Shown here: one piece after another, positions 7,503-60,896 of the stretch
How positions within the stretch are numbered: the stretch's first letter is position 1
How the letters are laid out: each line of letters starts with the position of its first letter
Program-made: the position numbers and the translations under genes
Source: an uncultured Bacteroidota bacterium
GTDB taxonomy: Bacteria; Bacteroidota; Ignavibacteria; UBA10030; UBA6906
Assembly: GCA_963734955.1 (NCBI GenBank)
Contig: CAVTJO010000010.1
Coordinates: 8,352 to 72,351, forward strand
DNA: 64,000 bases
Direction: 5' to 3'
The notes under the pieces: generated by a model
What the model was told of the DNA's origin: nothing
The model's database searches: none
Seen by the model: only the letters and a program-made list of their open reading frames with translations

Positions 7503-7575
7503 GCCAGGTCAAGAAAATGTAATTGTGAATTGATCTATTTGTCAAACTATTCGAATCGTCCCAGCACACGGCTGT

Positions 7576-9177: not shown

Positions 9178-9247
9178 GTTGCACCTCCTTAAATGAATTG
9201 ACAGAACAACCATTGTAAATAACTTTCATAAAGCACTTCTGTTACCG

Positions 9248-11758: not shown

Positions 11759-11776
11759 TTTGGCAGACTCCCTTCT

Positions 11777-14029: not shown

Positions 14030-14060
14030 GTCGTTAGTCCTGCGCATGGTGACTCCGCAG

Positions 14061-17027: not shown

Positions 17028-17410
17028 TAGGGACTCCTTATTTCTGGACGACAGCAACTGCATCATGGTGTGAACTTCGCGTACTCCATCTTCGCGCGAA
17101 ATCGCTGCCCGACAACATAGCCACAACTCTCGACCGCATCAATCCGGTTAGCTAATTTCATAATTTTCTACTCATCAATTCTCACCGCTCCTCCTGCTGA
17201 CAGACGAAGAACACCAGAGGCACCCGGCTGCCCTGTCACGCGATCAATCAAGAGCAGAGAATGGAGCGGCGCACTCTTGACCTGAAAGGCTGATTCAAGT
17301 TGGCCCATGCGAGCAGATCAGGATGAGCAAAGAACTTCGGGGCTACTATCAGCAAGCGATGTCGAAGCTATCGGCTGTTGTGCGGATTTCGAGAAAAAGG
17401 GGCGGTGAAA

Positions 17411-29868: not shown

Positions 29869-29933
29869 GTTCGATTCCTATTTTCGTTCTGCCGCATTCC
29901 GCGCATAACGCGGATGGACAATACTTCGCTCCC

Positions 29934-30425
29934 CTACTTTGACCTTCCCGGAGTGAAACTCAGCATCATACGCTCGACTTGCGGGCCCAGTGTCTTACGC
30001 GTCTTCTTGTTGAAGGTGGCCGTGAGTTTGTATGCGGTTCTTTCAGCAAGAACAAAAATCTGCTCCTGATACACTTTGACTGTATCAGTGGGATGCCAAC
30101 TGAAGATAGCTTTATAGGCTGGCACTCCATTGGCAAGCGTGATGCTGCCTTTCTTCAGAAGTCGACACGCTTTGAGTTCCTGCTCAAGTGCCCCAATTTG
30201 CCATTCGGCATACTCTCGAACCGTTTCAAAGTCCGAATTCTGTTCCAATGTAATCACGACGTTGTGCTGGATGGCATCTTCGACGGGACCGGTGAGAGTA
30301 TAGATCGTCTTGTCCTGCCAGTCGTCGGGGAAAGAAAGCTCAAAGGTATTCGCGAGAAAGCTCCGGTGAAGGGCTCTTCCCTCTTCGTTTTTCTTCCCGC
30401 TGGTTTGTGGCTTCGGTTGAGTCAT
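29934..30425 (-). CDS. DcrB/DUF1795 (Eag-like, PsbP fold) T6SS chaperone
   Basis: FELSFPDDWQDKTIYTL...NVVIT...VYQEQIFV...AYKLTAT...MMLSF; T6SS context. Confidence 0.72.
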   Translation of the reverse strand: MTQPKPQTSGKKNEEGRALHRSFLANTFELSFPDDWQDKTIYTLTGPVEDAIQHNVVITLEQNSDFETVREYAEWQIGALEQELKACRLLKKGSITLANGVPAYKAIFSWHPTDTVKVYQEQIFVLAERTAYKLTATFNKKTRKTLGPQVERMMLSFTPGRSK

Positions 30426-30455
30426 CCGGTTTCTTGCCGTTGTGAATCCGAAAAC

Positions 30456-31169
30456 TTACTGGCGAGTGTCTGGCATGGCCTCGGCTTGCTCGGTAAGAGC
30501 CACCCAGGTCTTAGATTTTTGTAGCCGAGCAATCTCGCTGTCACGTTCTGCTTCGTTCATGGAATACAGAAATATACGTGCATTGACCATATCTGATTCT
30601 TCGTCTTCCATTGAGAGCAGTCGACGCATCATCAGGTAGGCCTCGTCGCACACGCGGCGGTTCGGGCTTTTCTCTTCAGTAAAAGGTCCCTGCTCTCGAG
30701 GAGTAAGCCAACGCTTATCCCCAAGTAGTTGATTCAACTGCTTGACAATTCTCGCCTGGTCTTCCCTGTGGAAACCAACAACTGACTGCAAAGCCCAGAC
30801 GAGTTTGTCCGGCGAACCAGCGTCAAGCGAATCAAGAAGAGGGGTCAGTGCGACATCTCCTAGCGATAGGATAACAAGCCGCGCATTCTGTACTGCTTGT
30901 TCCTCAGGGTCTTTTCTGTTCGTCATGTCGACGACCTGACGCGTTTGCTCCCACGCCCGACCCCGGATCGTCCCGACCAAAGAATCCACTTTCTTGTTGT
31001 CGTTTGGATTCAACGATTCAATTGCAGCATTGAGAGAAGTATCCATGGATTTTGCTCCCATCAGTTGCTTGTGTTGTTCATTCCTTGAGCATGTCGCACC
31101 ACTGAGCACCGCTAGCATTGCGTACGTAAGAGTCGTCCACCGGATTTCCTGTCTTATCATCCTACGCAT
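30456..31169 (-). CDS. Exported helical protein / possible lipoprotein, candidate immunity protein
   Basis: Basic N-region, hydrophobic stretch and Cys (non-canonical lipobox); RVCDEAY motif; lies directly downstream of a putative effector. Confidence 0.5.
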   Translation of the reverse strand: MRRMIRQEIRWTTLTYAMLAVLSGATCSRNEQHKQLMGAKSMDTSLNAAIESLNPNDNKKVDSLVGTIRGRAWEQTRQVVDMTNRKDPEEQAVQNARLVILSLGDVALTPLLDSLDAGSPDKLVWALQSVVGFHREDQARIVKQLNQLLGDKRWLTPREQGPFTEEKSPNRRVCDEAYLMMRRLLSMEDEESDMVNARIFLYSMNEAERDSEIARLQKSKTWVALTEQAEAMPDTRQ

Positions 31170-31190
31170 AGCTCGACCGTCCTTGCCCAG

Positions 31191-32342
31191 TCAAAAGAGT
31201 TGAAAGCCTGCCGACTCAGCCGAAAGCCTCTGGTTTGCCCGCCTCACTGCATATTCGTGGCTGTCGAAGAAGTGTGAATCATTGTTGGGCTTGTTGTAGC
31301 TCAGTAGATAGAATAACCAATACACTGTTCTCCAGTCTGATGTGGCAGTCGTAAAATATGCAAGCTGCTCTGTCGGAGGTTTGGGCCGAGCCCATCCCTT
31401 GTATTCCAACCGACGAAGCAGCTGCCAAAGATGGATCTTGGAGCTACAACCAAAGTGGCAGAACGTCCTGCACCCGAGGTTCACGTCATTCAAATTGTGG
31501 ATGCTCCGCGCCGCACCATCCCAGCCAGCGTTCAGAACGATCGTGGCGCCATACCCCCAATAGCTGTCGGAAGGGGAAGTGAAACCGGCCTTTACCTGGC
31601 CGGCGAGTTCTGGTTTGATCTTTATTGGCAGTAGTGTTCTTCGTGCTTCCGGATGGCGACTCATGGGGTGCTGAGCTTCATTCGGGGGTTTCGGCAACTC
31701 GACGGGGATCGGCCTGCAGGTATATTTGTGGTGTTCCAGGTCCTCAATCTCAACCGGCACAAACGGATACCCCATGCGAAAGATGCCGTTGTCCTTGTGG
31801 GTCCCCTCTTCCCACTGTTCGCCAGTCATGTTACACTCCTTAGCGTACTGGTCGAAGCATGGACCGCGTCCATATCGTGCATGACCGCTATATACAACAA
31901 TAAGCTCCGGCGTCTCCAGTGCTTTCTTATAGTCCGAAAGCGAATACACAAGCCGGAACTTATAATGTACTCCCTGATCATAATTGATGTACTCCGCCGC
32001 CTTTCGATCCCCGGAGACTTTGAAGTCCGGAGAAAGTTTCTCTTCGAGAAACAAGATATCAGAGTATTGTTTCGCGCGCGCTATCCTGTTCTTTATCTGC
32101 TGTGCCCTCTGCGCATCAGTGCCCCATGTGTTCTTGGCAAGGGACTTAAGCACCGGATCGGTTTTGTAGGCAGCAGGATCCGCATCCAGTTTGTCCGAAT
32201 ATGCCTGTAGCATGTTATTATGCGCGGCAATGTCGGATTCATGGAACTGCACACCTTCAGCAATGACGATCTCCCTCACTTCCAAGGTGGAAACAAAACT
32301 GAACGGAGATCCGGTCGAGCCGCTGTTTGGTTCGCCGCTCAT
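31191..32342 (-). CDS. Putative T6SS effector with clan CD (caspase/CHAT-like) His-Cys peptidase pattern
   Basis: LIVVYSGHARYG ... TFCHFGCSS; no signal peptide; ATGA-coupled to the upstream gene. Confidence 0.5.
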   Translation of the reverse strand: MSGEPNSGSTGSPFSFVSTLEVREIVIAEGVQFHESDIAAHNNMLQAYSDKLDADPAAYKTDPVLKSLAKNTWGTDAQRAQQIKNRIARAKQYSDILFLEEKLSPDFKVSGDRKAAEYINYDQGVHYKFRLVYSLSDYKKALETPELIVVYSGHARYGRGPCFDQYAKECNMTGEQWEEGTHKDNGIFRMGYPFVPVEIEDLEHHKYTCRPIPVELPKPPNEAQHPMSRHPEARRTLLPIKIKPELAGQVKAGFTSPSDSYWGYGATIVLNAGWDGAARSIHNLNDVNLGCRTFCHFGCSSKIHLWQLLRRLEYKGWARPKPPTEQLAYFTTATSDWRTVYWLFYLLSYNKPNNDSHFFDSHEYAVRRANQRLSAESAGFQLF

Positions 32343-33220
32343 GCTTTCCCTGCTTCTCCAACCAGTGGACCAGCACCTTCAACTTCAATAACGTAGGCAC
32401 CCGGTGGCGCAGAGTGGACTCTGGCGTGTCCATCCGCATCTAACTTTCCATTTTCCTTTCGTCCATCAGCGAACGTAATGGTGAAGTTACGATCCGCAAT
32501 CGGATTGTGCTTTGAGTCTTTCACCGTAAATTCCACCCAGTCCCTGAACTCCAGCAGCCCCGATTCACCTGTCACTTCTCCCACTCTTACGCGGAAGAAA
32601 TACTCGGGTGGGCTGTACTTCTTGCCCGCAGGCTGCAACTCAGCATGCGTCGGGATGTCGTCCGTGTCCTCGTGATACTCATACTCCCACTCGGCTTCGA
32701 CCTTCTTGTTTTTCACCTGGACCGGAAATTTAGTGACAAAGTCATGCGCGCCATCTGCATCGTGTTCCCAGATTTCGATCATCGTTTCAACCCCATCCGG
32801 AACTCCCTTCACATCGGCGGTGAGCTTGAGGATGTCTCCTCGTTGGGCTTCCTTCTTGTCCCACTTAGCATTGGTAATCTGCACCGGGGGAAGAACGATA
32901 AGTGGTCCGGACTTCTGGCTCAGGCCGTGTTTGGAGAGCTTCACTGTCGCGTAGAGTTCCTCCTTCGCATCTGCCGGGACCATCACTGGCGCCCAAAAAT
33001 GATTGCCGTGAATTTTGTCTGAGAAGGTGCCATGATTCTTTCCGGATTTGTTCGTCAACTCGATCTTCAGATCGGAGTTGTTGCCGACGTAGTGGGTGAA
33101 CACTTCCAAACCGACACTCCCTCCCGGTGCAGCAGCACGACGCGTCCAGTACACCTGTTGGATGCTGGATTCAAGCTTGACCTTCTTTACTTCACCGGTT
33201 TTACCTGAATGCTCGGCCAT
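32339..33220 (-). CDS. Stand-alone Ig-like + transthyretin-like (TTR) adaptor, paralog of the PAAR C-terminal extension
   Basis: AKW...KVEAEWEY...EYFF...SGLL..DWVEF..KD...GKLDADGHAR...PPG matches the PAAR-protein tail. Confidence 0.7.
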   Translation of the reverse strand: MAEHSGKTGEVKKVKLESSIQQVYWTRRAAAPGGSVGLEVFTHYVGNNSDLKIELTNKSGKNHGTFSDKIHGNHFWAPVMVPADAKEELYATVKLSKHGLSQKSGPLIVLPPVQITNAKWDKKEAQRGDILKLTADVKGVPDGVETMIEIWEHDADGAHDFVTKFPVQVKNKKVEAEWEYEYHEDTDDIPTHAELQPAGKKYSPPEYFFRVRVGEVTGESGLLEFRDWVEFTVKDSKHNPIADRNFTITFADGRKENGKLDADGHARVHSAPPGAYVIEVEGAGPLVGEAGKA

Positions 33221-33247
33221 CGTTTAATCAGGATAAGTGTCTGGGTA

Positions 33248-34420
33248 TTATTCGATTTTGATGAGTGAATCCTCTGTGGCAACAACGATCTTCCCTTCCG
33301 GGGTTGCAATGGGAGGAGCGGACACGGGCTTTCCCAGAGCAACCTCGAACACCGGCTGCCCGGCGGAGTCGATGAGAACGACCGTCCCCCCACCGCTCGC
33401 AATCAGGAAGCCATTTCCCAGAGCGGTTGCATACGTGAAGTCTACTCCGGCACGATCAAAGGTCCACACGATTTTCCCTTCCCGCACTGCAATAATGTGT
33501 GACGCTACCACATACACGAACGACATTCCCACGATGGGAGGGAACCTGCCGGTTTGAAGTCGATGGAGACTCAACCCGGGAAGCCTGAGGCGCGATTGAA
33601 CCTTACCCCCTGGTTCGAGAACGGAAAGTTCAGGCTCGTCCTCGTTTGTGCCAAGAACATAAATGTCTCCACCCGGGTCTGCGCTTGCGACAAGAGGGTT
33701 ATCCATCGGGATCGGGATCCTCTTCACTTCAGCCCCTGAGTTGGCACCAATCATAATAGCCTCCTGCTTGAACACGGCGAGCAGATCCTTCTCCTTGATG
33801 AACAGTGGCGTCATCTTCTGAATGCCATCATACTCAAGCTCCCAGGTTGACAGGCCGCTTCCATATTCGGTGCCGAGAACAAACACCTGTGGCGGGGGCT
33901 CGTGTACTCCCCCAAGAGCCTGAACGACCGCAGTGAAGCCCCTGGGTTGCGGGACCAAAAGGGAGACGGGAAACTGGTTGTCCGGCACCTCAGGGATATA
34001 GTCATTAAGAGTCTTTTCCTTCCCTTCCATCGTGATGGTGTTGAGTTGGTACTTAACCGTAATGTAGTAGGCGTATGACTCGTTGATGCTTACCGGCAAA
34101 CCATTGGCTTTTTCCCGTTGCCAGATCAGATTCCCCTTGTCGGAATACAGGGCAATGCCGGATGCCGTCTCGACCAACACGTTGTCACCCCACGGCATCA
34201 AGAACATGGGGCGTGACTTGAGCTTGAGCGGACGTGCCCAGGCGACGTGACCTTGAGCTGTCGCGACGACCGGACAAAACGAACTCTGTCGGAAATCAGC
34301 GAATCGGGTGAAATACGGTGATTGCGCCATTGTGTTTTCTCTATTAGAATTTTCCCGTGGCTCACGGTCGGGTGCACAGACCGACAGACACACAAGCAAC
34401 ATCAACATCGCACGTTCCAT
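33248..34420 (-). CDS. PQQ-like beta-propeller protein with putative signal peptide, candidate immunity protein
   Basis: Repeated G..xW blades (GHVAW, GNLIW, GLSTW, GKIVW), SAPPIATPEGKIVVAT; hydrophobic MLMLLVCLSVC leader. Start uncertain. Confidence 0.65.
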   Translation of the reverse strand: MERAMLMLLVCLSVCAPDREPRENSNRENTMAQSPYFTRFADFRQSSFCPVVATAQGHVAWARPLKLKSRPMFLMPWGDNVLVETASGIALYSDKGNLIWQREKANGLPVSINESYAYYITVKYQLNTITMEGKEKTLNDYIPEVPDNQFPVSLLVPQPRGFTAVVQALGGVHEPPPQVFVLGTEYGSGLSTWELEYDGIQKMTPLFIKEKDLLAVFKQEAIMIGANSGAEVKRIPIPMDNPLVASADPGGDIYVLGTNEDEPELSVLEPGGKVQSRLRLPGLSLHRLQTGRFPPIVGMSFVYVVASHIIAVREGKIVWTFDRAGVDFTYATALGNGFLIASGGGTVVLIDSAGQPVFEVALGKPVSAPPIATPEGKIVVATEDSLIKIE

Positions 34421-34433
34421 CGGCAGCCATGAG

Positions 34434-37400
34434 CTAAATATTGTGAAATGTAAATGTGCCGTTTGCAACCGCCGGTCCCTGCACCCATGTTTTGATCACA
34501 CCGAGATCAGCAGAGGTCAGACCCGCCAGTGTCGCATCCTTCCCAAAAAAATATCTGATGATCTTCCTGTTATCACAATTGTTCCCAACGTTCACGGTCT
34601 TGCCACTTGTGCTGAAGCCGGATGAATTATCCTTCGTGACAACAACCCTGAAGTGATGCGCAGCGCTCGAGGCACCTGTTACCACCTCGCCATGTGGCAT
34701 GAAACGGATGTAGATGTTTGCAAAGTCATTTTTGGGATCCGAGCATTCCAGACGGTATTTTGCATCCAGCATTTGCCGGAAGTCCCTGTCAAGACGTTGG
34801 AACCACTGACGTTTCTGGGCAGCTGTCCAATTGGATGCACCGTCGACAAAAACAGCAGAAATGTTGGTCCGCACAACCAGCAAACCTTTGTATGTTTGTC
34901 CCGCAGTAATTGCATGGGCAAATTCATCGTCGCCGAGCTTATAGAGAAGCAGATCATCGGTCGACCCGCCTCCGAAGGAGTGGTTAATCTCCTGAGCCGC
35001 AGGTTTGTAGATATTCCTGTATCGTGCCGGAATGAGGGAGAACTTCAGATCCTTAAGCGATGACGCCAAATTCCGTCCCCTTGAGGAAAGGGTGGAGTGC
35101 CTTTCCGGCTTTGCCGAAGTCATTCAGCCAGTTGACCCGACCCCACATGTGACGCATCCGGGTTGCGTGATTCCCCGTCATCAATGCGAGGTTGTCGATC
35201 GAATACGGCATGCCGGGATAGTACTGAGTGAACTTCGGGACGGGTGAAAAGCCGCTGACGCTGGAAACATATTCGTCATCGAGACCGGATGCATGCCCCA
35301 GTTCGTGGGCCACGGTCAACCTCTTTGTTGTGCTGCCATCATAGTCTGCAACCGTATTGAGTGGATCATCCGGGTCGCCGGGACTGCTGCCGAACGGTTT
35401 GCTCTCGTCTGCATATCCGCTCGTACGAAACTGCGCCGTGTTAATTGCCATCCAGCTTCCCTGAGCATCGCTCACCAGCGTCACAAGGCACTTGTGTTTT
35501 CCTCCGCGCTGGATGGTACCTCCCGCTGCAACGCTGATGTCCTGTTTTGCCTCAAAAAGAGAAAAGGGTCTTATCAGAATTTCTTCACTGCCGTTGACTT
35601 TTTCAACCTGATAATCCTTGGCCGCATGCCGCTCCATGGCATTTTGAAATCCCTTGGTTTCGTAATGGACTCGATCTGTCGCAGTTCCACCGTTGCCCGC
35701 ATCAACCTTAAACCGACCTGACCAATACAGCACAAGGGCGCTGACAATCTTCTTGTCGGAGAGCCCGCATCCGTGGAGGTAATACAGATCAAAATTGCCG
35801 CAATCCTTGGCTACATAGTCGCTCGTGACATCGGCACTCCCCGTACTGCCAATAATGGCTTTGGATCCACTTACATCAGCATCATTGATTCTGGCAGCAC
35901 GGGCACCAAGAATATGATCCTTGGAGAAATCGAACCCAGCAACATTCTCGGTCCGACGCTTGCTAATGTGATAGAAGTCGGAGCAAAACACCACAGCACA
36001 GCTCGCACCATGCAAATCGCTGATGAGATTTTCCTTGAACGCCACGTCGGAGTGATACGCACCGTCCGCCTTCGCTTTGTGAACTTTGACCTTAAATTTG
36101 TCGTCGGGGTCCAGGAAGAGAATACATACGCGAGAGTTTTCCGAAAGCGCAACCGGATTGTCACTGCCATCCTTATCCTGAATGGCCTGCTTCCCGGTCG
36201 CATCGACGAGGACGACATCATCGAGGGAGAAGAGCAGCGGTTTGTCCGGCGTTGTTATTGCACCTCCGAATGGCTTCAGTTTCTTGTCGTCCTTGACCAC
36301 CTTCTCGAAGCGGTTTCCCGTACCCATGTTTCCGTCATAGCGGGTCCAGTAGTTCTGTGATGACCAATGTGGCGGCAGATCGTAGTACTTGAATCGCTCG
36401 GTAAACGGCAGCACCTTTATATTGTCGGATGTTTCCTTCTTAAAAACCGGCGTCGCACTCTTATCCTTCGTGTACAGCCATGTTTGATCCGCCTTGAACT
36501 CGAAGTGAACGGTTTTCCGCGCAGAATCATTCAAGGGGGTCTCGTACTGCACTTTGAGACTGTAGACACCGTTTTTCCATTTCGCCTCGGTCTTAAGTTC
36601 CTTCGTCCCATTCTCGAACGCCTGTATCTGCAGGCCATCGGGAACATCCATCCATTTGTTCGTCACGCGATTAAAATACTTGAACCCAATGTGATAAACC
36701 ACGGCATACAAATCAGCCGGGTCGATATAGAGGGGAACAAAATGAAACGGATGGTAGATGGGGCATTCGCTTGCCTTGTGAACCTTCTCAATCTGCGCCG
36801 GACAATTCAGAACCGGGACCTCATCCTTGTCGAAGAACAGTATCTCCACCCTTCGGTTTTGTTGAGAGCGGTAATTGTCCTTCTCGGCCGACTGTATCGG
36901 GAACGACTCCCCGCATCCGACAAAGCGTTTTTCGTCTGAAACAAAATTCAATCCATGCCGGAGACTTTCAAGATCATCAGCGGATACACTCAGCGTATTG
37001 GCGATATCCTCGCTGTAGATGTCGTAGACTGCTTCCAACATCTCCCTGGTCCATCGTTTCCTGGCATCATTGCGAACGGCAGTACTCGCCGTTCCAGGAA
37101 TCCTTGCACGCGCATGTTTGTCGGCAAACTCCGAGTTGTAATATTGGATGAAGTTGTTCGTCGCCTTCTCGGTATCGTCTCCCCAGTTGTTGTCGACCTT
37201 GACCGGATTGCAGGGCCATTTCCGGCTCTTGAACACATACATCAGGATTTGCTGGTAATCTTCAATCCTGTGCCTGTTGTGACTTACAGTTGCCCAGTCC
37301 TCTCGCTCGCCGGTTAACAGATACAGGATATTCTTCGCCCTCAGATCGGAAAGCTCGAAGTTATATTTTGCCTGGCCGGAGGTGTCGGTGTGGCCTGCGA

Positions 37401-37707
37401 CGAGAATTCGCTTGTCCGGATCGAATTCCACCTGTTTGAACACCAACGCAAGCGCTTTTACGCCGGTTATCCTATCCTGCAACTCCTTGATTCCTGTTTG
37501 GGGTCCCGATGCACCGTCCGTCGACGATTTTCCCGACGGACGCTCCGGCATCATGACCGAACTGTCGAGATGAAAAAGGACATCCTCCATCTCAAGGACG
37601 TGAACGTCGATCTTCTTCAGAATCAACTCCACGGTCCGGTGCGAAAACGTTGACGATTTCCCCAGGATCTCGCGGAAGATGACGCTTTGTTCGACTGTAG
37701 GATCCAT
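34434..37707 (-). CDS. About 1090-aa OmpA-like domain + zinc metallopeptidase protein (putative effector), one +1 indel at about 35055
   Basis: ILVAGHTDTSG...NFELSDLRA...NRRVEI (OmpA-like, with a large insert); VAHELGHASGLDDEY. Removing one T in GCTTAAG fuses ORF 35053..37734 with 34434..35123. Confidence 0.72.
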
Positions 37708-37717
37708 GCCGCGGGCC

Positions 37718-38794
37718 TTATAGCCGTGGGTCAATCTTGATCAGTATCCTGCCGGGGGGAACCTTTTCCAGTTTTGCCTTCCCACTCCCGTCAAACGTTC
37801 CCTGACGCACTTCGCCGCTGCTGAGAAACGCAGTATACTTCTTGTTCCCAATTGATTTTCCGTCGTTATCTTTGAGATGAATCTCTGCCCAATCCCCGCA
37901 TGAAAGCAACCCGGAGCGAGCTTTCACATTCTGGACGAGGGCCTCGAAATAGTAGGTAGGGTAAGAGTATTGCGTAATCTCAGTGTCCTCCTGCTTTCCA
38001 CCTGTCTCCGGCACCGGGTATTCCCATTCAGCTTCGAGCTTGTTTCCTCGAACTGTCACACTGATTTCAGTGACCATTGTATCCGGTCCCTGGATGTCGC
38101 GCTTGAAAATCATCAGCGAAGCCTGGCTTCCGTCCTTGAATCCCTCCGTCTGAGCTTGAAGCTTGATCTTCTCCCCCACGGGAACGTAGTCCTTCGCCCA
38201 CTTCGCATCATATACGCCCATCAGCTCGACCTTGCAGTTCCCTTTGTTCATGGCATCCCGCCCAACGCGACCATCAGGACGGAGGATGCTGAAGGACTCC
38301 TTGCCGTCCGAGTCTGTAAACTTGTACGGCATTCCACTGACAGGCTTCCCGGCCTTGTCGGTGAACTGAAATTCCACCCAATGTTCGATCTTCTTGAAGG
38401 ACTCCACATTTTCGGTGGCCGCAGTCGCCGCACTCGCCGCAGCCGCAGCAGCAGCACTGCTCCCGGCTCCCCCCCCGCTTGCACTACCTGAACCGCCTTC
38501 TCCAATGAGGACTGTCGGACATCCCATCAGAATCGTTGCCGGTGGTCCAACACAGGTCGCCATATCACCCATACGCGCAGCAGGCTGCCCACCGATGAGA
38601 ACCATCGGACTCCCGAGGATGATCGGTCCACCGACATGCGGGATTGGCGGCACAGCCGGTGTCATCATCGGACACATGTGCATGTCGCCCAGACGTGCGG
38701 CGGGCATGCCTCCAATGAGAACCATTGGGAACCCCAATGTGATCACACCGCCATGGGCAGTTGGATCGCCCAGACGCGCTGCAGGCTTACCCAT
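37718..38794 (-). CDS. PAAR-domain spike tip protein with TTR-Ig-TTR C-terminal extension
   Basis: Three PAAR motifs (KPAARLGD, MPAARLGD, QPAARMGD), G/A linker, then WVEFQFTDKAGKPV..Y.....G and WAEIHLKD TTR-like units. Confidence 0.93.
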   Translation of the reverse strand: MGKPAARLGDPTAHGGVITLGFPMVLIGGMPAARLGDMHMCPMMTPAVPPIPHVGGPIILGSPMVLIGGQPAARMGDMATCVGPPATILMGCPTVLIGEGGSGSASGGGAGSSAAAAAAASAATAATENVESFKKIEHWVEFQFTDKAGKPVSGMPYKFTDSDGKESFSILRPDGRVGRDAMNKGNCKVELMGVYDAKWAKDYVPVGEKIKLQAQTEGFKDGSQASLMIFKRDIQGPDTMVTEISVTVRGNKLEAEWEYPVPETGGKQEDTEITQYSYPTYYFEALVQNVKARSGLLSCGDWAEIHLKDNDGKSIGNKKYTAFLSSGEVRQGTFDGSGKAKLEKVPPGRILIKIDPRL

Positions 38795-38854
38795 GATTGT
38801 CCAGGATTTGGTGCTCGGAATTCAACAGACAACCTCGAATTCTTTTGACATGTT

Positions 38855-40987
38855 TCAATTGATCATAACCGGCATTCCCTTGATCGTGTTGGGTCCGGTC
38901 GATTGCACCGTCACCAGGGAACCTTTAACCTGAAGATTGACGCCAGCCTCGACAGTGGTGTTGAGTCCCTTGATCTCATGCGTCGTGGAGGCCTCGGTTT
39001 TCACCGTCATTCCCTTCGACTCACACGCCATCTTTGCCTCCTGCTTGATATTCGACGCATTGACCTTGTAGTCGGTTTTTGCCTCCGACTGGATATTCGC
39101 CGCCTTGATCTTCGTGTCACCGTCGGTCTCAATGTTCAGTGTTGTTGCCTTGATGTCAATGGTTCCCTTGGGAGCATGGAAATCAATGCTTCCTTCGTCT
39201 GTCTTGATCACAAGCTTCTTGTTTGTAATGTCGATGATGAATGTATTCTTCTTTTCTTTATCCGAAAGCGTAATCATCTCGCTTCCGGATGCGTCGTTGA
39301 TGGTGACGAAGTGGCCGTTCTTGCTCTGGATTGTGATCTTCGTATTCTTGTCATCCATGATGATCTGATGACCGTCGGTCGTCTTGACTGAGATGTTCTG
39401 ATTCTTATCATCCATTGTCACCACATGTTTCTTTGTTGTAACGATATCGATCTTGTCATCCTTATCGTCGAGCAACAGAGTATGGGCGTCAGTCGTCTTG
39501 AGAGAAATGTGTGTCTCATCCTTCAGATCGTCCATCACCATCTCATTGCCGGCAGCGGTGCGAATCACGTTATGGGATTTGTTCTGGGCAACGACCGGCG
39601 AATTCTGCGAGGGGTTCGGCACAGACGAAAGCCCAAGGGGACGATCGACATTTCCGTCGATGCATGCCCACACGAGCTCGGCACCGGCGTGAACCGGAAA
39701 GTGCATTCCGTAGCCCGCGCCGGTGTACGGTTGCGCAAGCCTGATTGCCCTGGAAGCTTTCCCTTGTCCCGCGCTGCCCATGTCGAACGGCATCTTTACT
39801 CTGTAACGACCGTCTTCATCGAGATAGGCGTACTCACCACCGGCGGACTCCACCTTTGCCGTCATGATCCCCGGGATGCGCGGCTCGGGCGTGATTCGAG
39901 GCGGACGATATTGCACATCAGCGGGAATGCAGGTAAACTGGTTCTTGTACGATGGACTGGTGCCACCCGCTCCTCCCGCCGAACCAATCCCGCCACCCTG
40001 CGACGCCGTATGTGTCACCTGGGTAATGAGGTAATCACCGTTCAACGCACTGCGGTAGTGCCGGCTCAATGTGAATTTGTATCCGGCGTGAAACCCCCGG
40101 CAGTCTCCGCCTCCCACCACTACCCGCCGGGCAGCCTCGATCTCTTCGTTGCGAATTTTGGCAAGCACCTTCCCTTCGCTTGCGGTCTTGAAGTGCTCGC
40201 CATACTCGTAGTACATGCCGGGACTTTTACTGTCCATCTGGGACTCGGCGGAGAGGCTCGTTTCCGGTGTGCGATAGTTATAATCTTTCAGCACCACCTT
40301 CCCTGTCACGACACGCTCATGCCAGGAGAGTTCGCGAACGGTTTCCTCATCCACATCCGTCCCCTCACCGACATACGACTCGATATCATCCGGGGCTTCG
40401 ATCTTCGGATCGTTCGCATTGTCATCCACAATCACCAGCACATCTTTCCCATTGGAGTGGTCGAAGAAGTAGTACATACCTTCGTACTCCATCAGGCGGC
40501 TGATGAAATTGAGATCGGTTTCGCGGTACTGCGCACAATATTCGCGGGGTTGATATGTCCGCTTTGTCTTGAGGGAGAAATCGTCGTTCGCCAGCCCTGC
40601 ATCTTTCAGAACGTCCTTGATGATATCCGGCACCGATTTGTTTTGGAAGATTCGGCTCTGATAAAAGAGTGAGAGCTTCCACAACCGCGGGACGAGCACC
40701 GCATGGTACTGTGCAAAATCCTTGCTCCGACCCGTTTCTTCCAGCTCGGAGAGAATTCCATGAAGCTCCTTCTTCTCATCATCCCGCCGGATGACAAGCT
40801 TCGCCGGCTTGTTCAGGAAGTCCGGGAGATTGAGATCGGAGTCGATGGGTGCGATCAGTTTGACCTCGAATCGGGACAGTTGCGAAATCGATTCGGCACC
40901 ATAGAACTCTGTGAGTTGAAATGTGCTTTCCGGTTCACCGCCGACTTCGAACCAGAATTGGGCCTCGGATGCGGCATACTCGGGCAT
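38855..40987 (-). CDS. vgrG: T6SS spike protein VgrG (TssI)
   Basis: E.ISQL..F, RIFQNKSVPDII, QYRETDLNFISRLMEYEG, DYNYRTP, DEDGRYRV, GMHFP..G.E...DGNVDRP, gp5-like C-terminal repeats. Confidence 0.97.
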   Translation of the reverse strand: MPEYAASEAQFWFEVGGEPESTFQLTEFYGAESISQLSRFEVKLIAPIDSDLNLPDFLNKPAKLVIRRDDEKKELHGILSELEETGRSKDFAQYHAVLVPRLWKLSLFYQSRIFQNKSVPDIIKDVLKDAGLANDDFSLKTKRTYQPREYCAQYRETDLNFISRLMEYEGMYYFFDHSNGKDVLVIVDDNANDPKIEAPDDIESYVGEGTDVDEETVRELSWHERVVTGKVVLKDYNYRTPETSLSAESQMDSKSPGMYYEYGEHFKTASEGKVLAKIRNEEIEAARRVVVGGGDCRGFHAGYKFTLSRHYRSALNGDYLITQVTHTASQGGGIGSAGGAGGTSPSYKNQFTCIPADVQYRPPRITPEPRIPGIMTAKVESAGGEYAYLDEDGRYRVKMPFDMGSAGQGKASRAIRLAQPYTGAGYGMHFPVHAGAELVWACIDGNVDRPLGLSSVPNPSQNSPVVAQNKSHNVIRTAAGNEMVMDDLKDETHISLKTTDAHTLLLDDKDDKIDIVTTKKHVVTMDDKNQNISVKTTDGHQIIMDDKNTKITIQSKNGHFVTINDASGSEMITLSDKEKKNTFIIDITNKKLVIKTDEGSIDFHAPKGTIDIKATTLNIETDGDTKIKAANIQSEAKTDYKVNASNIKQEAKMACESKGMTVKTEASTTHEIKGLNTTVEAGVNLQVKGSLVTVQSTGPNTIKGMPVMIN

Positions 40988-41091
40988 GGCGTTCTCTCTT
41001 GGTTGGTAGTATCACTGAGCAATAATTCCGGCTCTCGATAATCGAGATCCAATCGCTACATTCTGTCTCGCCACTTAGGCGGATGGTCGTC

Positions 41092-44000
41092 TCATTTGTC
41101 CATGAGCGGCAGGACGCGATTTACTTCCTCCATTCCGCCCCAGTCGTTGAAGAGTGTCTCACCCTTCTGCTTAATTTCCTCAAGCGTGGGAATCCGGTAT
41201 CTGCCCTGACCGGAATGTGGATAGATAATGTAGAGCATTTTCGCCTCGACAATACCAGCTGCGTGCACCCGTTGGGCCAGCGCGGGTGAACCTTCTCCGA
41301 AATGAGGATCGTCGCCTCCTCCCATATCGGCAAATACTGCATGACAGTATCTGTGTGCGTCATCGGCGTCAGGGTTCACCACGGTGAGGAAGTCACCAAT
41401 CTCTCCGGTCGGCCCTTGTGTGACTTGCGTAAACCGGGAACCGCTCGCGGCGTACACCTGTCCAGGGAAAGCGATGTAGGGAATCCTGCGTGCATCAACA
41501 TAGCGGTTCGGATCGTTGCGATGCTTCGTCTGATCAACAAGGCTTGTGGAGGACACATAGAATCCCGGGCAGGGATCATGTTGCCCTTGTATGATGGGAG
41601 TTCCCGTCTTCTCACCGGTGTCCGTCACAACGCCGAACCAATTCCCCGGATGCCCACCGTTGCTCTTCTTGTCAAGGGCACCCCTATATGACATTAAGTC
41701 AACAGTCAGATATTCCGCCTGATTAAGAACGTTCAGATCCTCGGGGTGATAGCAGTTTGGGGCGCCATCCACGTCAACCTGAAGCCGACCCTTGATCAGG
41801 TATGCAGAAGACTTCCCTTTCACTTTGTACGCGGCATACGTATGGTCCCGGGCCGCAGAACTCTCGCCGACACTGCCCTTGAACTTGAAGAAGACCTCCA
41901 AAGAATCATCGACAGGCTTAGCCTCGGCAGGCGCAGTGCCTGTTCCAAGCCGCGCTCCTTCAGGATACGTCAGCGATGTGACAGAAATAAGTTTGCTGAG
42001 CAGATCGCTCAGAAATTGCCCTGAGATAAGATTGTAACTCCTTCCATCTGCCTCCTGGCCGGGTGCTTTGCCCCCTGGCCATTGACCCAGTGATGGCATT
42101 CGCACCCTGTCCTTATCCATCGTCCCATCGACGTATCCATCTTTGTCCTTCCAGTTGGCGATCTCCGCGGTGCCCCCGTTGTGCGCCTGAAAGAGCACAC
42201 CTCCGGGATCAACGAGCAGGAGACCTCCGCCGACGATGCCATGAGCCAGCACGAAGTGTCCTGCCGGCGCACCAATACCGACGATGACCGGTCCCGTTTT
42301 AAGCATGTCCCGGATCAAGCCCAGCCATCCACCGGCCGGTTCCTTGCTCACATAGCGCGCGGTAACGCCGGAAGGTTCAACCACATCACCTTTGTGCTCG
42401 CCTTTTTCTGCCCGTTGAATCTCCCCCGTCTTCAAGTAGTGTGCGGCCACTTTGTAGATTGTGAGAAAGTCTATCGTTCCTCTGCCTGTCAACGCCACTT
42501 TCCCCGGTGGATCGGCGTTGGGCCAGAACGATTCAGCCATGCGAAGACCGTACCAGCTCTGGTCAATACTTCCACCCGGCTTGGTCGGGAATGGAATCTT
42601 CCCCGCCTTACAATCCTCCGCAAACCATCGAAGTGTCATCGCGGCAGTGGATGCATTGCAGCCGTTGTTGATCCAGTCGATCAACCTGCCGGTTTTCGGG
42701 CCGGCGATCCGCGCGCGCTTCCAGCGATTATCGTACTGCGGGAGCAAACGCACCGGCGGGTCGAGATACACATCGTCACCCTTCACAATGGCAATCGGAC
42801 CGGTCGACTTCTCCCGAATCTGAAGGGGAGCCGATGTTGTGGCCTCCAACTCTCCCTCGTCAGAAAGTGCCGCAGTGACACGTGCTTTCAGCAGTGTACC
42901 AACACTGAAATCCGCAGGGATCGGAACAGTCATTTCGACTTCCGCCTTGTCGACTTTCATGTTCGCCGACGCTTCAATTTCTTTCCCTCCTGCCTCATCA
43001 ATCAGAAGGATGGGGCACTCCTGACCGATTACCAGATCACGAGAGTGCAGACGCAATTTCGCCGAACCGCCGGGGGCCACTGTATTGCCGACCCAGTAGA
43101 GATGATGCAGACCTGGTTCAAGTCCGGGTTTCTCCGTTGTAGCTGCGTGGCCCCGACATACATCCATGATCTTGGCCAGCGTGTCCGCATCAGGCAGACC
43201 AGTCACATCCAGCCCGTTGGACTTCTGGAATTCTTCTACCGCCGCGAGCGTTTCATCATTATTGATCCCGTCAGGCGGACCGGGGTCATGAGTCAGCTTT
43301 TTTCCGCGACATAGATTCCCGAGAAGAAGTTGAGCAGTCACCTGATGCAGTGAGGCGGGAAGTTGCCTGGCGATAGCTCCACGTGTTTCGGGGCCTGCTA
43401 TACCATCGACCTTTTTGAGATGGAATTTTGTCTGAAACTCCTTGAGCGCTTCCTGTGTCTTTGCATCATTGATGTCGTCTGAATTCCCGGGGTCTGACTT
43501 GATCCACTTCGCCCGGTAAAACTGTTGTAATGCCTGCTCGACATCATGCTGCATAGTGAGCGGCTTTCCCTTTTCCTGAGTGGCAGGTTTGGGGGTGGCT
43601 TTCCCCGGAGCTTGCGCGTCCCGTTTCACGTTCCGGCCTTTCACCACGGTAACTGCAGCATCGAGGTGGCCGGGCACATCGGACTCATTGGTCGGTGCAG
43701 CACCATCCTTCATGCAGTAGGGCTTGGGAGGCTCCCCCTTGTAGTGGAGACGAGCGCATTTGAGTGATGCCACCGAATGGGCGTCCGTACCGGGATATAC
43801 GACCCTCATGGGTTTCTTGCGAAACGATTTCATATCGATTTTCTTGACTCCAGGGAGCACGAGCCAGACCCCCGCCTCGACAATAGCATCTTCGTCAACG
43901 AAGATTTTATCCTTGCCTTTGCACTTGGACAAATTGCCTGGTTTCTCAATCCACCATTCCGTTTCCTTCTTCTTCTTTCCGGGGTGTTTCTTATCATCCT

Positions 44001-44604
44001 TCTCCACAATCTTGCTTTTTACTACGGCGTTCTTTCCGGTAATCCACGGATCTCCCCAACATCCATAAATACTCACACCGGGGAAGTTTCCGTTGGAGCC
44101 GATGATCTGAAAGCAGTCGACTTTTGCATCGGGGCCGGGTCCATCAAGATGTACATCCCAGCAGAAAACAGAGTGGCCGATGGTGTTTTGCCATCCAATT
44201 TCCACCAGGTCCCCGCGCCGCATCTGCGTTGGATCGATCTTATGGCCAAGGTTGTACTTCTCGATGGCGTCGACGCCGTGACTGTTGTTATTGAGGTTGT
44301 AAAAATCATGAAATGGGAGCGGGTCTTTGCCACCGTTGACCATGGGAACATAGGGATTCCTGGCATCGACTTTTCTTGGATAGTCCCCGGTGTCAAACGC
44401 AACGCCAATCACCGTTCCGGTAAACGGCGAGCATGTCGTCCCTTTGCGGACTGGAATCGTACAACCGCTTACATAGGTCAGTACTCCGCCGCAGCCCGGG
44501 ACATAGCCATCCTCATTCAGCACGCGCAGGTCCTCACAGATCTGGATGATACTGTCAACGCCTTGTGGAAGATCTGTCTGTGTGTACTGAACAGGCTCAC
44601 TCAT
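41092..44604 (-). CDS. 1170-aa multi-enzyme putative T6SS effector: NlpC/P60-like, 2x PG-binding, Ig-like, peptidase C39-like, GH75 chitosanase-like
   Basis: TTCSPF...RRGDLVEI.W...GHSVF; ALKEFQ..VDGIAGPET and AVEEFQ..GLDVTG; PQYD..GCNAST..GHFVL..VDP; VDVDGAP...YVDARRIPYIA...FADMG...GEGS. Confidence 0.78.
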   Translation of the reverse strand: MSEPVQYTQTDLPQGVDSIIQICEDLRVLNEDGYVPGCGGVLTYVSGCTIPVRKGTTCSPFTGTVIGVAFDTGDYPRKVDARNPYVPMVNGGKDPLPFHDFYNLNNNSHGVDAIEKYNLGHKIDPTQMRRGDLVEIGWQNTIGHSVFCWDVHLDGPGPDAKVDCFQIIGSNGNFPGVSIYGCWGDPWITGKNAVVKSKIVEKDDKKHPGKKKKETEWWIEKPGNLSKCKGKDKIFVDEDAIVEAGVWLVLPGVKKIDMKSFRKKPMRVVYPGTDAHSVASLKCARLHYKGEPPKPYCMKDGAAPTNESDVPGHLDAAVTVVKGRNVKRDAQAPGKATPKPATQEKGKPLTMQHDVEQALQQFYRAKWIKSDPGNSDDINDAKTQEALKEFQTKFHLKKVDGIAGPETRGAIARQLPASLHQVTAQLLLGNLCRGKKLTHDPGPPDGINNDETLAAVEEFQKSNGLDVTGLPDADTLAKIMDVCRGHAATTEKPGLEPGLHHLYWVGNTVAPGGSAKLRLHSRDLVIGQECPILLIDEAGGKEIEASANMKVDKAEVEMTVPIPADFSVGTLLKARVTAALSDEGELEATTSAPLQIREKSTGPIAIVKGDDVYLDPPVRLLPQYDNRWKRARIAGPKTGRLIDWINNGCNASTAAMTLRWFAEDCKAGKIPFPTKPGGSIDQSWYGLRMAESFWPNADPPGKVALTGRGTIDFLTIYKVAAHYLKTGEIQRAEKGEHKGDVVEPSGVTARYVSKEPAGGWLGLIRDMLKTGPVIVGIGAPAGHFVLAHGIVGGGLLLVDPGGVLFQAHNGGTAEIANWKDKDGYVDGTMDKDRVRMPSLGQWPGGKAPGQEADGRSYNLISGQFLSDLLSKLISVTSLTYPEGARLGTGTAPAEAKPVDDSLEVFFKFKGSVGESSAARDHTYAAYKVKGKSSAYLIKGRLQVDVDGAPNCYHPEDLNVLNQAEYLTVDLMSYRGALDKKSNGGHPGNWFGVVTDTGEKTGTPIIQGQHDPCPGFYVSSTSLVDQTKHRNDPNRYVDARRIPYIAFPGQVYAASGSRFTQVTQGPTGEIGDFLTVVNPDADDAHRYCHAVFADMGGGDDPHFGEGSPALAQRVHAAGIVEAKMLYIIYPHSGQGRYRIPTLEEIKQKGETLFNDWGGMEEVNRVLPLMDK

Positions 44605-45548
44605 GGGTCGCCTTCCTCTTCTCCGGCCAGGTCAACATACTCCGTCAACCGTGAGCTGGCCTCCGCGCCTTCGTCCTGCGAATCCGCCGTCCCGACGATG
44701 AATCGATACACATTCTCTTCATCTTCCCGGTCCTTCCAAAGTAGTGGATGCGCCGTGAATGTTTCCCCGCGTACCTCCACATCATATGCTGCAAGCAGAG
44801 CCGGGGCCTCGATCCTGCCGTCCGCATCCGTGATGACATCGAATCGGTCATCCCCCGAACTTACTTCGACCTGTTCGTTCGTAATCGGATTCCCCGCCTC
44901 ATCAACAAAATGGCAGATGAGAACTCCCTGGGGATAGTCTGCCGGGAGCGGTGGCGGTGATTGCGGGATGGCATCTTCATCGAGAATTTCAATGCGATAA
45001 TTCTTGTTCTCCGGAACAACGGCGCGAACAACACCGTTTTCATCTGTCATCTTTGGGCTGCCGACCGCCTTGCCGGTGTCTGGATCGATGATCCGGACCT
45101 TGTGGTTCGCAAGAACGGTATCACCGATGGTGCGAACCTCTGTCGCGATCACGTAGATCTCCTCTTCTCTTGCGGGCTGAATCTCCGCGACAGCTCCTTC
45201 CGGCTCTGCTACCGTCTCAGGCTTCCTCGCTGCAACAGGGACATTGCCAACGTGAGGCGCGCGCATGATGACGAGATCACCGCGTTGGAACGCTTCGACG
45301 AGCCGGGATTTGATGCGACCATGCAGATCGTACCCACGCGTCCATCTTCCAACGACCACGGGGATTCCGCTGATGCTCTCGTAGATCTCCACCATATTCT
45401 GCCGCGTATGGGGATCCGCAAGCCAACGGTCGATGTAGAGCCATGCAAGGTGAGGATTCACCTGTGCATCCACCGCGGCAGGAATGTCATGCCTCCTCGC
45501 TATCTGATATGACTCGGAGATCCCGTGCAGGCGCCAGGTTCTTTGCAT
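44601..45548 (-). CDS. Protein with two TTR/prealbumin-like domains, putative T6SS adaptor
   Basis: VLANHKVRII...TDENGVV and FVDEAGNPITNEQVEV...TDADGRI; ATGA-coupled to the 1170-aa gene. Confidence 0.6.
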   Translation of the reverse strand: MQRTWRLHGISESYQIARRHDIPAAVDAQVNPHLAWLYIDRWLADPHTRQNMVEIYESISGIPVVVGRWTRGYDLHGRIKSRLVEAFQRGDLVIMRAPHVGNVPVAARKPETVAEPEGAVAEIQPAREEEIYVIATEVRTIGDTVLANHKVRIIDPDTGKAVGSPKMTDENGVVRAVVPENKNYRIEILDEDAIPQSPPPLPADYPQGVLICHFVDEAGNPITNEQVEVSSGDDRFDVITDADGRIEAPALLAAYDVEVRGETFTAHPLLWKDREDEENVYRFIVGTADSQDEGAEASSRLTEYVDLAGEEEGDP

Positions 45549-45681
45549 GTTCCCGATATTTCAATGGACAGAGGACAACATTACGAACTCTCCAACAACA
45601 CAATCCCGCGGGGGACCGTCATCGATTGACTTTCAGGATCCATCACCCGAAGAAGTCAACGTCAATCCCGGAGTGGACTAC

Positions 45682-60889: not shown

Positions 60890-60896
60890 GTGTAGT

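Follow-up and report, generated by a model that had tools for sequence, protein, structure and literature searches.

A PAAR tail and a free Ig-Ig-TTR protein as paralogous candidate cargo carriers in a T6SS-i cluster of an uncultured Ignavibacteria bacterium

A stretch of 64,000 nucleotides (nt) from contig CAVTJO010000010.1 of an uncultured Ignavibacteria bacterium (GCA_963734955.1), in the following called the window, holds a complete type VI secretion system (T6SS) cluster of the T6SS-i type, lying whole on the minus strand. Its cargo section appears to encode two paralogous carriers: a PAAR tip protein of 358 amino acids (aa), PAAR358, whose tail consists of a transthyretin-like (TTR) domain, an immunoglobulin-like (Ig) domain and a second TTR domain (TTR1-Ig-TTR2), and a free protein of 293 aa, p293, with the architecture IgA-IgB-TTR. 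We propose, with a probability of about 70%, that p293 serves as a modular adaptor for effector loading, which could equally be called a detached loading domain, and combines a constant docking part with a cargo-specific TTR domain. Homology of the two carriers, conserved synteny, a fixed recombination junction, an association of the TTR domain with the cargo and natural fusions of the module are observed and form the basis of this reading, in which TTR-cargo binding, secretion of p293 and a docking site of its constant part are predicted.

In the proposed mechanism, the last TTR domain (~60 aa) of both carriers would be a variable end, which recombination swaps along with the effector and immunity genes downstream of it. 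The TTR domain of p293 would hold the effector encoded just downstream, p383, with p237 as the immunity protein, and the constant IgA-IgB part, together with an Eag/DUF1795 protein, would couple p293 to a secreted part, the spike or the tube. The same device would be present in tethered form in the PAAR tail, serving p893/p229 with p406 as the immunity protein.

The kinship of the two carriers is clear from their sequences. Residues 115-281 of p293 align to residues 194-355 of PAAR358 with 33% identity over 167 aa (BLASTP E 4e-28), and a second match connects the p293 TTR domain to the first TTR domain of the PAAR tail (E 1e-4). The two are the sole copies in the 4.19-Mb genome. A first-pass annotation of the window, made from the sequence and its translated open reading frames (ORFs) alone, had called p293 a PAAR-less paralogue of the PAAR tail, and the motifs that it quoted are indeed present in both. 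PAAR358 scores 83.5 bits against the PAAR family (Pfam ID PF05488, cut-off 27), whereas p293 and a further TTR-containing protein, p315, have no PAAR domain.

The same annotation described three repeated cassettes, each with a TTR-like gene placed before an effector-like gene, and the three junctions are as it reported. The p293 ORF (32339-33220) overlaps the 383-aa ORF by ATGA, the 315-aa ORF overlaps the 1170-aa ORF likewise by ATGA, and PAAR358 ends in a TAA stop that is separated by 10 nt from the start of the OmpA/HExxH gene, an ATG at 37707. However, only p293 and the PAAR tail share ancestry beyond the small fold, and the term "three repeated cassettes" is overstated. The BLASTP matches of p315 to the other two reach an E of only 0.013 and 0.066, which does not make it their paralogue, and a profile-profile alignment (hhalign) covers only one TTR-like domain of 60 residues (probability 86%, E 5e-6). 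The TTR/Ig fold assigned to these proteins is seen in the AlphaFold2 (AF2) models of p293 and p315, which both contain small prealbumin-like beta-sandwiches, but the corresponding Pfam family CarboxypepD_reg (Pfam ID PF13620) stays below its cut-off of 32.3 bits for both (p293, 20.5 bits; p315, 26.0 bits). Some p293 homologues carry precomputed PF13620 or PF17802 matches.

The AF2 model of p293, built from a 36-sequence alignment, folds into three beta-sandwiches, the two Ig-like domains of the constant part and the TTR domain at aa 227-289. The region of aa 226-293 resembles small beta-sandwich domains (VIA Z 8.9-9.3), and in the family alignment the constant part displays an invariant acidic loop with a EWEYEYHEDTDEIP-type motif. 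No Pfam match above the cut-off and no NCBIfam match were obtained for p293, and a Pfam search at E<=0.01 returned neither DUF4123 (Tap/Tec) nor DUF2169 for p293 or p315.

A word-index search found 585 relatives of p293 at E<=1e-3. The best 120 of the 585 are 53-100% identical and about 285 aa long, and none has a functional name, those that are named being "hypothetical protein". An exhaustive profile search of sequence clusters at 50% identity yielded 4428, 1176 and 296 clusters at E<=1e-3, 1e-10 and 1e-30, respectively, where the weakest tier probably includes generic TTR-like domains. For the comparison of gene neighbourhoods, 102 loci were gathered: 23 from species-representative genomes, labelled Aminicenantes, Ignavibacteria, Zixibacteria, Krumholzibacteria, Calditrichota, Desulfosarcina, Acidiferrobacterales and others, and 79 from metagenomes, kept from 224 relatives found. 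In a sample of 401 genomes of the phylum, the family occurs in six, in each of which 4-6 kb separate a PAAR-tail-type match from a full-length p293-type match, and none of the eight genomes of the window's own family carries the p293 module, which makes the distribution patchy. One of the sampled genomes contains a third match (G344:C1:3928192-3928371), the TTR domain alone (profile positions 227-286), in a 258-aa ORF about 4.4 kb downstream of the p293 gene.

The neighbourhood of p293 is well conserved. A PAAR358-type protein with the same tail is encoded in 21 of the 23 genome loci, the other two having less than 3.2 kb of upstream sequence, and a homologue of the window's Eag/DUF1795 protein, Eag163, is likewise found in 21 of the 23. 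Two gene orders recur, namely VgrG, PAAR-tail, [effector block], p293, [variable], Eag, (TssBC-like fusion), FHA-SLT, PP2C, and PAAR-tail, [effector block], Eag, p293, [variable], ClpV. For 105 p293 copies, the Eag gene lies immediately upstream in 31, downstream within about 4.4 kb in 21 and further upstream in six, with none shown for 47. Judged by homology and gene context, p293 represents a widespread, unnamed family of T6SS loci that also encode a PAAR-tail protein and an Eag/DUF1795 protein.

The Eag protein varies with the constant part of p293 and not with its TTR domain. In 20 different-cargo pairs with an N-part identity of at least 0.7, the mean Eag identity is 0.74, compared with 0.43 for the TTR domain, and this constancy holds even where the Eag gene sits downstream of the variable cassette. 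Eag163 passes the DcrB threshold (Pfam ID PF08786), and its match to the EagT6 structures (PDB IDs 1tu1 and 6xrf) is weak (E 0.04).

The genes that follow p293 are highly variable, a pattern that the first-pass annotation had proposed as a check of its idea. A same-strand downstream ORF could be called for 84 p293 homologues, and these ORFs fall into 49 sequence families, of which 35 are singletons. The gap between p293 and the next ORF has a median of 27.5 nt, measures at most 50 nt in 67 of the 84 and is replaced by an overlap in 11. Many of the downstream proteins match enzyme families: a Pfam search with 29 ORFs of the genome loci gave Metallophos, PAD, Amidase_2 (two, one of them with PG_binding_1), Zn_dep_PLPC, Het-C, metallo-beta-lactamase and LysM, with no Pfam match for 14 of the 29. 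ORFs in the second position of the genome loci include pentapeptide-repeat or HEAT proteins by Pfam, which may be immunity proteins. The p383 family follows nine of the 84 p293 homologues and is seen in none of the 23 genome loci. An all-versus-all BLAST comparison revealed no N-terminal motif shared among the cargo proteins. The PAAR tail follows the same trend more weakly, with 13 families among the 29 members that have a downstream ORF and the p893 family in eight of the 29.

The variability begins at a sharp boundary within p293. For 10 pairs of homologues with near-identical N-parts and different cargo, the mean identity in bins of 10 residues lies at 0.79-0.95 as far as aa 230 and then drops from 0.92 (aa 221-230) to 0.31 (aa 231-240), just past the conserved LLxF[KR]DW[IV]E motif. 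The boundary is visible in the DNA of two loci (L023 and L093), which are 89.8% identical from the Eag gene to about codon 236 of p293 and share no identity beyond it, their downstream proteins of 1007 and 1004 aa being unrelated. Two near-identical records (L007 and L097) contain tandem p293 copies with identities of 0.91 for IgA, 0.93 for IgB and 0.47 for the TTR domain, where each copy is followed by a different gene. A conserved N-part, a sharp junction at about aa 230, 49 downstream families and a recurrent p383-p237 pair together give the picture of polymorphic-toxin-type exchange. The relatives of PAAR358 are similar in that the PAAR and TTR1 domains stay 0.72-0.92 identical and TTR2 falls to 0.36-0.54 where the cargo differs.

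The TTR domain is also associated with the identity of the cargo. In different-cargo pairs, the TTR identity is 0.41-0.44 whatever the identity of the N-part, including the 10 pairs with IgA and IgB more than 0.9 identical (TTR 0.41), while in same-cargo pairs it climbs from 0.44 to 0.98 in step with the rest of p293. We reduced 81 homologues to a non-redundant set of 73, in which 36 have a cargo family of at least two members. The nearest neighbour shares the cargo family in 22 of the 36 cases when chosen by the TTR domain, compared with seven by IgA plus IgB, four by IgA and eight by IgB (chance 0.057). Among members of one cargo family, more similar TTR domains tend to go with more similar cargo (Spearman 0.44; regression coefficients of 0.46 for cargo and 0.32 for the N-part). 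Three relatives (P0004, P0013 and P0025) have TTR domains 0.66-0.74 identical to that of the window, and in one of them, P0025, IgA is just 0.42 identical.

Natural fusions connect the module directly to effectors and to secreted parts of the machinery. The best 150 cluster representatives of the profile search were classed with a local hidden Markov model. Among them are 50 stand-alone p293-like proteins and 21 in which the complete module forms the N-terminus and an extension of at least 150 aa comes after it. In a further 18, IgB-TTR precedes an extension, in 10 it forms the C-terminal end of another protein, and 51 are short forms, fragments or other arrangements. Amidohydro_2 (three), metallo-beta-lactamase, OmpA and PG_binding_1 domains are found on the extensions, and seven of the 21 extensions match (E<=1e-6) stand-alone ORFs located downstream of p293 homologues in the loci. 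The protein P0136 (633 aa) is a fusion that corresponds to the gene pair of the window, consisting of the p293 module at aa 2-292 (E 7e-93), an acidic Ser/Asp-rich linker and a p383 domain (51% identity over 95% of p383). IgB-TTR is further found at the C-terminus of a protein with an Hcp domain (P0347), at the C-terminus of an Rhs protein (P0375), after the RHS core in the position expected of a toxin domain, and alongside Peptidase_M15, OmpA and DUF2272. The module thus occurs free, on the structural parts PAAR and Hcp and on effector N-termini, which is the signature that defines MIX-like loading domains.

Several observations weigh against a cargo-specific role of the TTR domain. At an N-part identity of 0.4-0.5, the TTR domains of same-cargo pairs are no closer (0.44) than those of different-cargo pairs (0.42), and the TTR domain of the window's p293 reaches only 0.25-0.46 identity with its counterparts in the eight metagenome homologues located ahead of p383 relatives, the cargo proteins being 36-49% identical. 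In the PAAR358 family, the nearest-neighbour test gives no advantage of TTR2 (15 of 19) over the constant part (13 of 19). Since the TTR domain sits between the crossover site and the cargo gene, linkage alone could cause their co-transfer. The pairs are not phylogenetically independent, some loci being near-duplicates (hence the reduction from 81 to 73), the downstream ORFs were called mechanically, and part of the apparent fusions could be gene-calling artefacts. Two of the 84 homologues (L003 and L035) have the Eag gene directly after p293 and no cargo gene, and Eag is therefore itself one of the 49 families. The Eag companion presents a further difficulty, as known Eag proteins chaperone N-terminal transmembrane segments of effectors and stabilise them (PMC12881460), and no transmembrane or prePAAR segment was seen by eye in PAAR358, p293, p383, p893 or p1170. 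The Gly/Ser/Ala linker of PAAR358 was considered as such a client and rejected, being of low complexity and lost in several lineages.

Components of the proposed device are known from other systems. C-terminal TTR domains of VgrG proteins are described to mediate cargo specificity in VgrG1-Tle1 of enteroaggregative Escherichia coli (EAEC) and in VgrG2a/VgrG2b with Tle4/Tle3 of Pseudomonas aeruginosa, where the spikes of VgrG2a and VgrG2b are 99.5% identical and their TTR domains 25%, with different lipases as cargo (PMC10433429, PMC7376260). In these accounts, a conserved, secreted T6SS part ends in a small TTR-like domain that mediates delivery of the cognate cargo or is predicted to be required for it, and the p293 alleles vary in a similar manner, but here the TTR domain is located on a PAAR tail and on a free Ig-Ig-TTR protein. 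A profile match of the p293 TTR domain to the EAEC VgrG TTR domain (PDB ID 6sjl, aa 783-835) was not significant (E 1.4). The Tap/DUF4123 adaptors are reported to bind the spike with a conserved lobe and to recognise unrelated effector families with a variable lobe (PMC11582642). They share with p293 the gene position upstream of the effector and the combination of a constant and a variable part, whereas p293 has no Pfam DUF4123 match, is modelled as all-beta and occurs as a module fused to PAAR, Hcp and effectors. The domains MIX, FIX-like, DUF2345, LysM and PG_binding_1 and those of the RIX secreted adaptors are described as loading domains that lie free between spike and toxin, on a structural protein or at the toxin N-terminus (PMC10673891, PMC10435454). 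The p293/IgB-TTR module shows all three forms but is not among the six families named there and has no Pfam or NCBIfam model.

A precedent for paired delivery is the T6SS of Bacteroides fragilis GA3, in which the adaptor BtapC is reported to co-load the PAAR-effector BtpeA and the effector BtaeB (Bfe7) on VgrG; the effector Bte3, with three N-terminal beta-sandwiches, needs the PAAR-like Pte3 and the BtapC-type adaptor Ate3 (PMC13699834, PMC13402684). The point of similarity is a conserved triad, in which a PAAR-linked effector is joined by a second effector with tandem beta-sandwiches at its start and by a small beta-rich adaptor that co-secretion requires. By these descriptions, however, it is a GA3-type system of Bacteroidota, while the cluster of the window encodes ClpV, TssA, TssL and TssM, and the beta-sandwich module of the window has a gene of its own, is paralogous to the PAAR tail and is accompanied by Eag/DUF1795 and not by BtapC. 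The p293 IgA-IgB model aligns to the BtaeB N-terminal domain (PDB ID 9jdh, Z 11.8, 187 residues, root mean square deviation 10 Å; 9jg8_C, Z 11.0), although generic domains reach similar values (A2M MG 11.8, C3 11.2, intimin 10.2), and a PDB sequence search with p293 matched neither 9jdh nor 9jg8; the alignment therefore counts as a lead. The similarity to EagT6/EagR is that Eag163 belongs to the same Pfam family and adjoins PAAR or p293; the difference lies in the transmembrane client, of which none was seen by eye in the window.

The full model of the first-pass annotation, in which three homologous cassettes feed one spike and free p315 and p293 oligomerise with the PAAR tail or VgrG so that three effectors leave per firing, appears doubtful to us. 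The co-occurrence of p293-type and PAAR-tail-type genes (six of six genomes, 21 of 23 genome loci), the highly conserved IgB domain shared by the two carriers, the constant Eag-like gene that accompanies both, and the paired delivery of a PAAR-effector and a second effector via one adaptor in B. fragilis, with the fit of IgA-IgB to the N-terminal domain of that second effector, would all agree with it, but p315 is not a paralogue of the two carriers, is rare and is absent from all 102 related loci, and the structural match is no better than that of generic tandem Ig/MG domains (Z 10-11.8) and comes without a sequence match. The narrower proposal that p293 docks on the PAAR tail or on VgrG, with a single spike then carrying two or three effectors, we likewise regard as rather doubtful. 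It is unlikely that p293 is instead a non-secreted cytoplasmic chaperone or holdase of the Eag or Tap kind, which hands the effector over to the spike: a small, translationally coupled gene directly upstream of an effector is the signature of known non-secreted adaptors, and p293 resembles the constant and variable lobes described for Tap/DUF4123, yet its module is found joined to the secreted PAAR in the window, to Hcp in P0347 and to effector N-termini, which is better explained by a co-secreted loading domain.

An accessory or structural spike component, with a TTR domain that varies by hitch-hiking with the neighbouring variable region, seems improbable. The crossover site at a conserved motif beside the variable cassette, the loss of the relation between TTR domain and cargo family at long evolutionary distance and the two of 84 homologues without a cargo gene are what such a component would leave behind, whereas, as a predictor of the cargo family, the TTR domain surpasses the longer constant part about threefold, the correlation persists within cargo families (Spearman 0.44), and the module is fused to the same effector families that elsewhere sit downstream. 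We consider it very improbable that p293 or p315 is a cytoplasmic immunity protein or inhibitor that silences the downstream enzyme in the producer. The overlap of p315 with p1170, the lack of a signal-peptide gene adjoining p1170 and the described inhibition of Tle1 on binding VgrG through a TTR domain (PMC10433429) would suit an inhibitor, but separate lipoprotein-like immunity candidates follow p383 (p237) and p893 (p406), an immunity protein is not expected as an N-terminal fusion to its own toxin (P0136), and the conservation of p293's constant part greatly exceeds what is usual for immunity proteins. The modular loading adaptor or detached loading domain remains our preferred reading of p293.

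The suggestion of an undescribed system holds in part. TTR-mediated cargo recruitment and adaptors with constant and variable lobes are already known, but the p293 family itself was not found described in the literature searched, which comprised titles, abstracts and passages and lay largely outside subscription journals; this suggests that the loading principle is known and the family is new to it. Its distinguishing traits would be the free Ig-Ig-TTR paralogue of the PAAR tail, the fixed recombination junction, the constant Eag partner without an evident transmembrane client and the spread in mostly uncultured phyla. Tentatively, the p293/PAAR-tail/Eag triad might represent an undescribed, widespread T6SS-i loading class of largely uncultured phyla, in which tethered and free Ig-TTR copies, bridged by an Eag-family protein free of a transmembrane client, would co-load two effectors on one spike and hypervariable TTR domains would act as exchangeable sockets for cassette swaps at one fixed junction. 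Such a class would be an independent invention of the paired delivery of the Bacteroides type.

How the T6SS recognises unrelated effectors without a signal is still being worked out family by family. The p293 family marks the adjoining gene as a likely T6SS effector in little-cultured phyla (Zixibacteria, Krumholzibacteria, Aminicenantes, Ignavibacteria, Calditrichota and Desulfobacterota) and could serve as a genomic handle for effector discovery, as MIX, FIX and RIX did. With a fixed junction and a variable domain of 60 aa, it may offer a compact model of how cargo specificity is encoded and exchanged, and it suggests a role of the Eag family beyond the chaperoning of transmembrane segments.

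The features of the cargo section are collected in Table 1.

Table 1. Coordinates and assignments of ClpV and of the cargo-section features in the window
Feature	Position	Strand	Assignment
ClpV/TssH	45682..48315	-	Last core gene before the cargo region; Pfam AAA_2, AAA_lid_9, ClpB_D2-small, Clp_N
p315	44601..45548	-	Candidate adaptor or chaperone for p1170 (role guessed); ATGA overlap with p1170
p1170	41092..44604	-	Putative cell-wall-targeting effector; two PG_binding_1 (E 1.3e-22), C-terminal chitosanase-like domain aa 925-1161
VgrG/TssI	38855..40987	-	Spike; Phage_GPD E 2.4e-87, TIGR03361 E 6.7e-115
PAAR358	37718..38794	-	PAAR_motif E 1.2e-23
PAAR358, PAAR domain	38495-38794	-	aa 1-100, followed by the Gly/Ser/Ala linker
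PAAR358, TTR1	38219-38383	-	aa 138-192
PAAR358, IgB	37904-38215	-	aa 194-297
PAAR358, TTR2	37721-37897	-	aa 300-358, variable
p893	35053..37707	-	Putative PAAR-tail cargo; 884 aa from ATG 37707; OmpA-like domain (E 2.5e-7) and C-terminal HExxH
p229	34434..35123	-	C-terminal part of the p893 protein in relatives, separate overlapping ORF here
p406	33248..34468	-	Putative periplasmic immunity protein for p893; beta-propeller (PQQ_2 E 2e-6), signal-peptide/lipobox-like N-terminus by eye
p293, constant part	32531..33220	-	aa 1-230; IgA aa 19-109, IgB aa 114-225; AF2 pLDDT 87.1
p293, variable TTR	32339..32530	-	aa 231-293 and stop; proposed cargo-specificity domain
p383	31191..32342	-	Putative p293 cargo effector, possibly a Cys/His hydrolase
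p237	30456..31169	-	Candidate immunity lipoprotein for p383; hydrophobic N-terminal segment with a Cys at its end, by eye
Eag163	29934..30425	-	Eag/DUF1795 (Pfam DcrB, PF08786), E 1.2e-13, 51.7 bits (cut-off 27.2)

The putative cargo of p293, p383, has 167 homologues, some of them with LysM, and the invariant residues H154, C291, C295, H296 and C299. No Pfam match even at E<=1 and no PDB sequence match were obtained for it. The label of a "CD-like protease" given in the first pass would draw on the invariant His/Cys columns and on ESM Atlas rows named CHAT (0.91) and Peptidase_C25 (0.79), which are weak leads; a clan CD-like protease is a guess. Homologues of p237 follow homologues of p383 in three loci (L050, L063 and L086).

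The protein called an OmpA-metallopeptidase has both the OmpA-like domain and the HExxH motif, but it is split in the window by a frame change. The ORFs p893 and p229 overlap by 71 nt in different frames, with the change near 35053-35123, and correspond to one ORF of 1107-1163 aa in relatives (L001, L002, L011, L017 and L019). A frameshift, a sequencing error and a real split could each explain the break. Homologues of p406 follow relatives of p893 in many loci, and the recurrence of p406 and p237 after the relatives of p893 and p383 is as expected of immunity proteins.

Together, p315 and p1170 form a third pair of TTR gene and putative effector, of separate origin, in which the role of p315 is a guess. 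The AF2 model of p315, built from seven sequences (pLDDT 71.9), consists of an alpha+beta N-terminal domain (aa 1-97) and, beyond a disordered linker, a pair of TTR-like beta-sandwiches (aa 132-188 and 208-284), for which Foldseek returns HIUase/transthyretin-like proteins, the regulatory domain of carboxypeptidase D/M/N and CnaB (E 1e-4 to 2e-2). The N-terminal domain has no usable ESM Atlas match. The p315 family consists of seven proteins, and in the phylum sample it is found in one of the 401 genomes, G000, the genome of the window itself; neither the 102 related loci nor the other 400 genomes contain a homologue. The C-terminal domain of p1170 is similar to the viral chitosanase V-Csn (PDB ID 7tvl, E 1.1e-13) and alone matches in nine genomes, while no full-length homologue of p1170 exists in the 401 genomes and the protein is absent from all 102 related loci. 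No signal-peptide gene that could encode an immunity protein adjoins p1170, which may mean that the producer itself lacks the target, a non-self cell wall being one example. Kinship of the p293 IgA domain with an Ig-like region of p1170 (aa 480-584) was considered on a BLASTP match of E 1e-4 and rejected at an hhalign probability of 7%.

Pfam matches were obtained for TssK, TssL, TssM, TagF, TssA, TssB, TssC, Hcp, TssE, TssF, TssG, ClpV, VgrG and PAAR, which places the cluster in T6SS-i. Its core genes are arranged as TssK, TssL, TssM (two overlapping ORFs), TagF, TssA, TssB, TssC, Hcp, TssE, TssF, TssG and ClpV, followed by p315, p1170, VgrG, PAAR358, the ORFs of 893, 229 and 406 aa, p293, p383 and p237, and then by Eag163 (DcrB/DUF1795), a TssB-TssC-like fusion, an FHA-SLT protein and a PP2C phosphatase. 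In related loci, VgrG comes directly after ClpV. A promoter and terminator scan of positions 29800-45800 found such sites no more frequent than in shuffled sequence.

Further features concern single genes of the cluster and of its relatives. TssM is read as two ORFs (57421-59451 and 59228-60901, minus strand) in different frames with an overlap of about 220 nt, one with the IcmF-related_N part and the other with the IcmF-related, helical and C-terminal parts. The homologue of ClpV consists of two adjacent ORFs (~487 and ~364 aa) in seven Zixibacteria and Ignavibacteriaceae loci (L010, L014, L015, L017, L018, L020 and L021) and of a single ORF of 819-842 aa in four others (L009, L011, L016 and L019). 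At the far end of the cluster, after Eag163, a 648-aa protein (27922-29868, minus strand) combines a TssB/VipA-like N-terminus (E 8.3e-17) with a TssC/VipB-like body (E 1.3e-64) that is 33% identical to the cluster's own TssC. Homologues of this fusion have the same position in two related loci (L062 and L087), and a second, fused sheath paralogue is unusual. It is followed by a fusion of an FHA domain with an SLT lytic transglycosylase (26333-27832, minus strand) and by the PP2C phosphatase (25460-26263, minus strand), a pair that is conserved at the end of related clusters and suggests a threonine-phosphorylation control tied to a peptidoglycan-cutting enzyme.

The window also contains genes related to type IX secretion (5892-17126, minus strand), with a PorV-like gene at 10730-11758, a Por_Secre_tail gene at 7576-9213 and a CarboxypepD_reg/outer membrane protein beta-barrel gene at 14061-17126. 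The genome appears to combine a type IX secretion system with the patchily distributed T6SS-i cluster.

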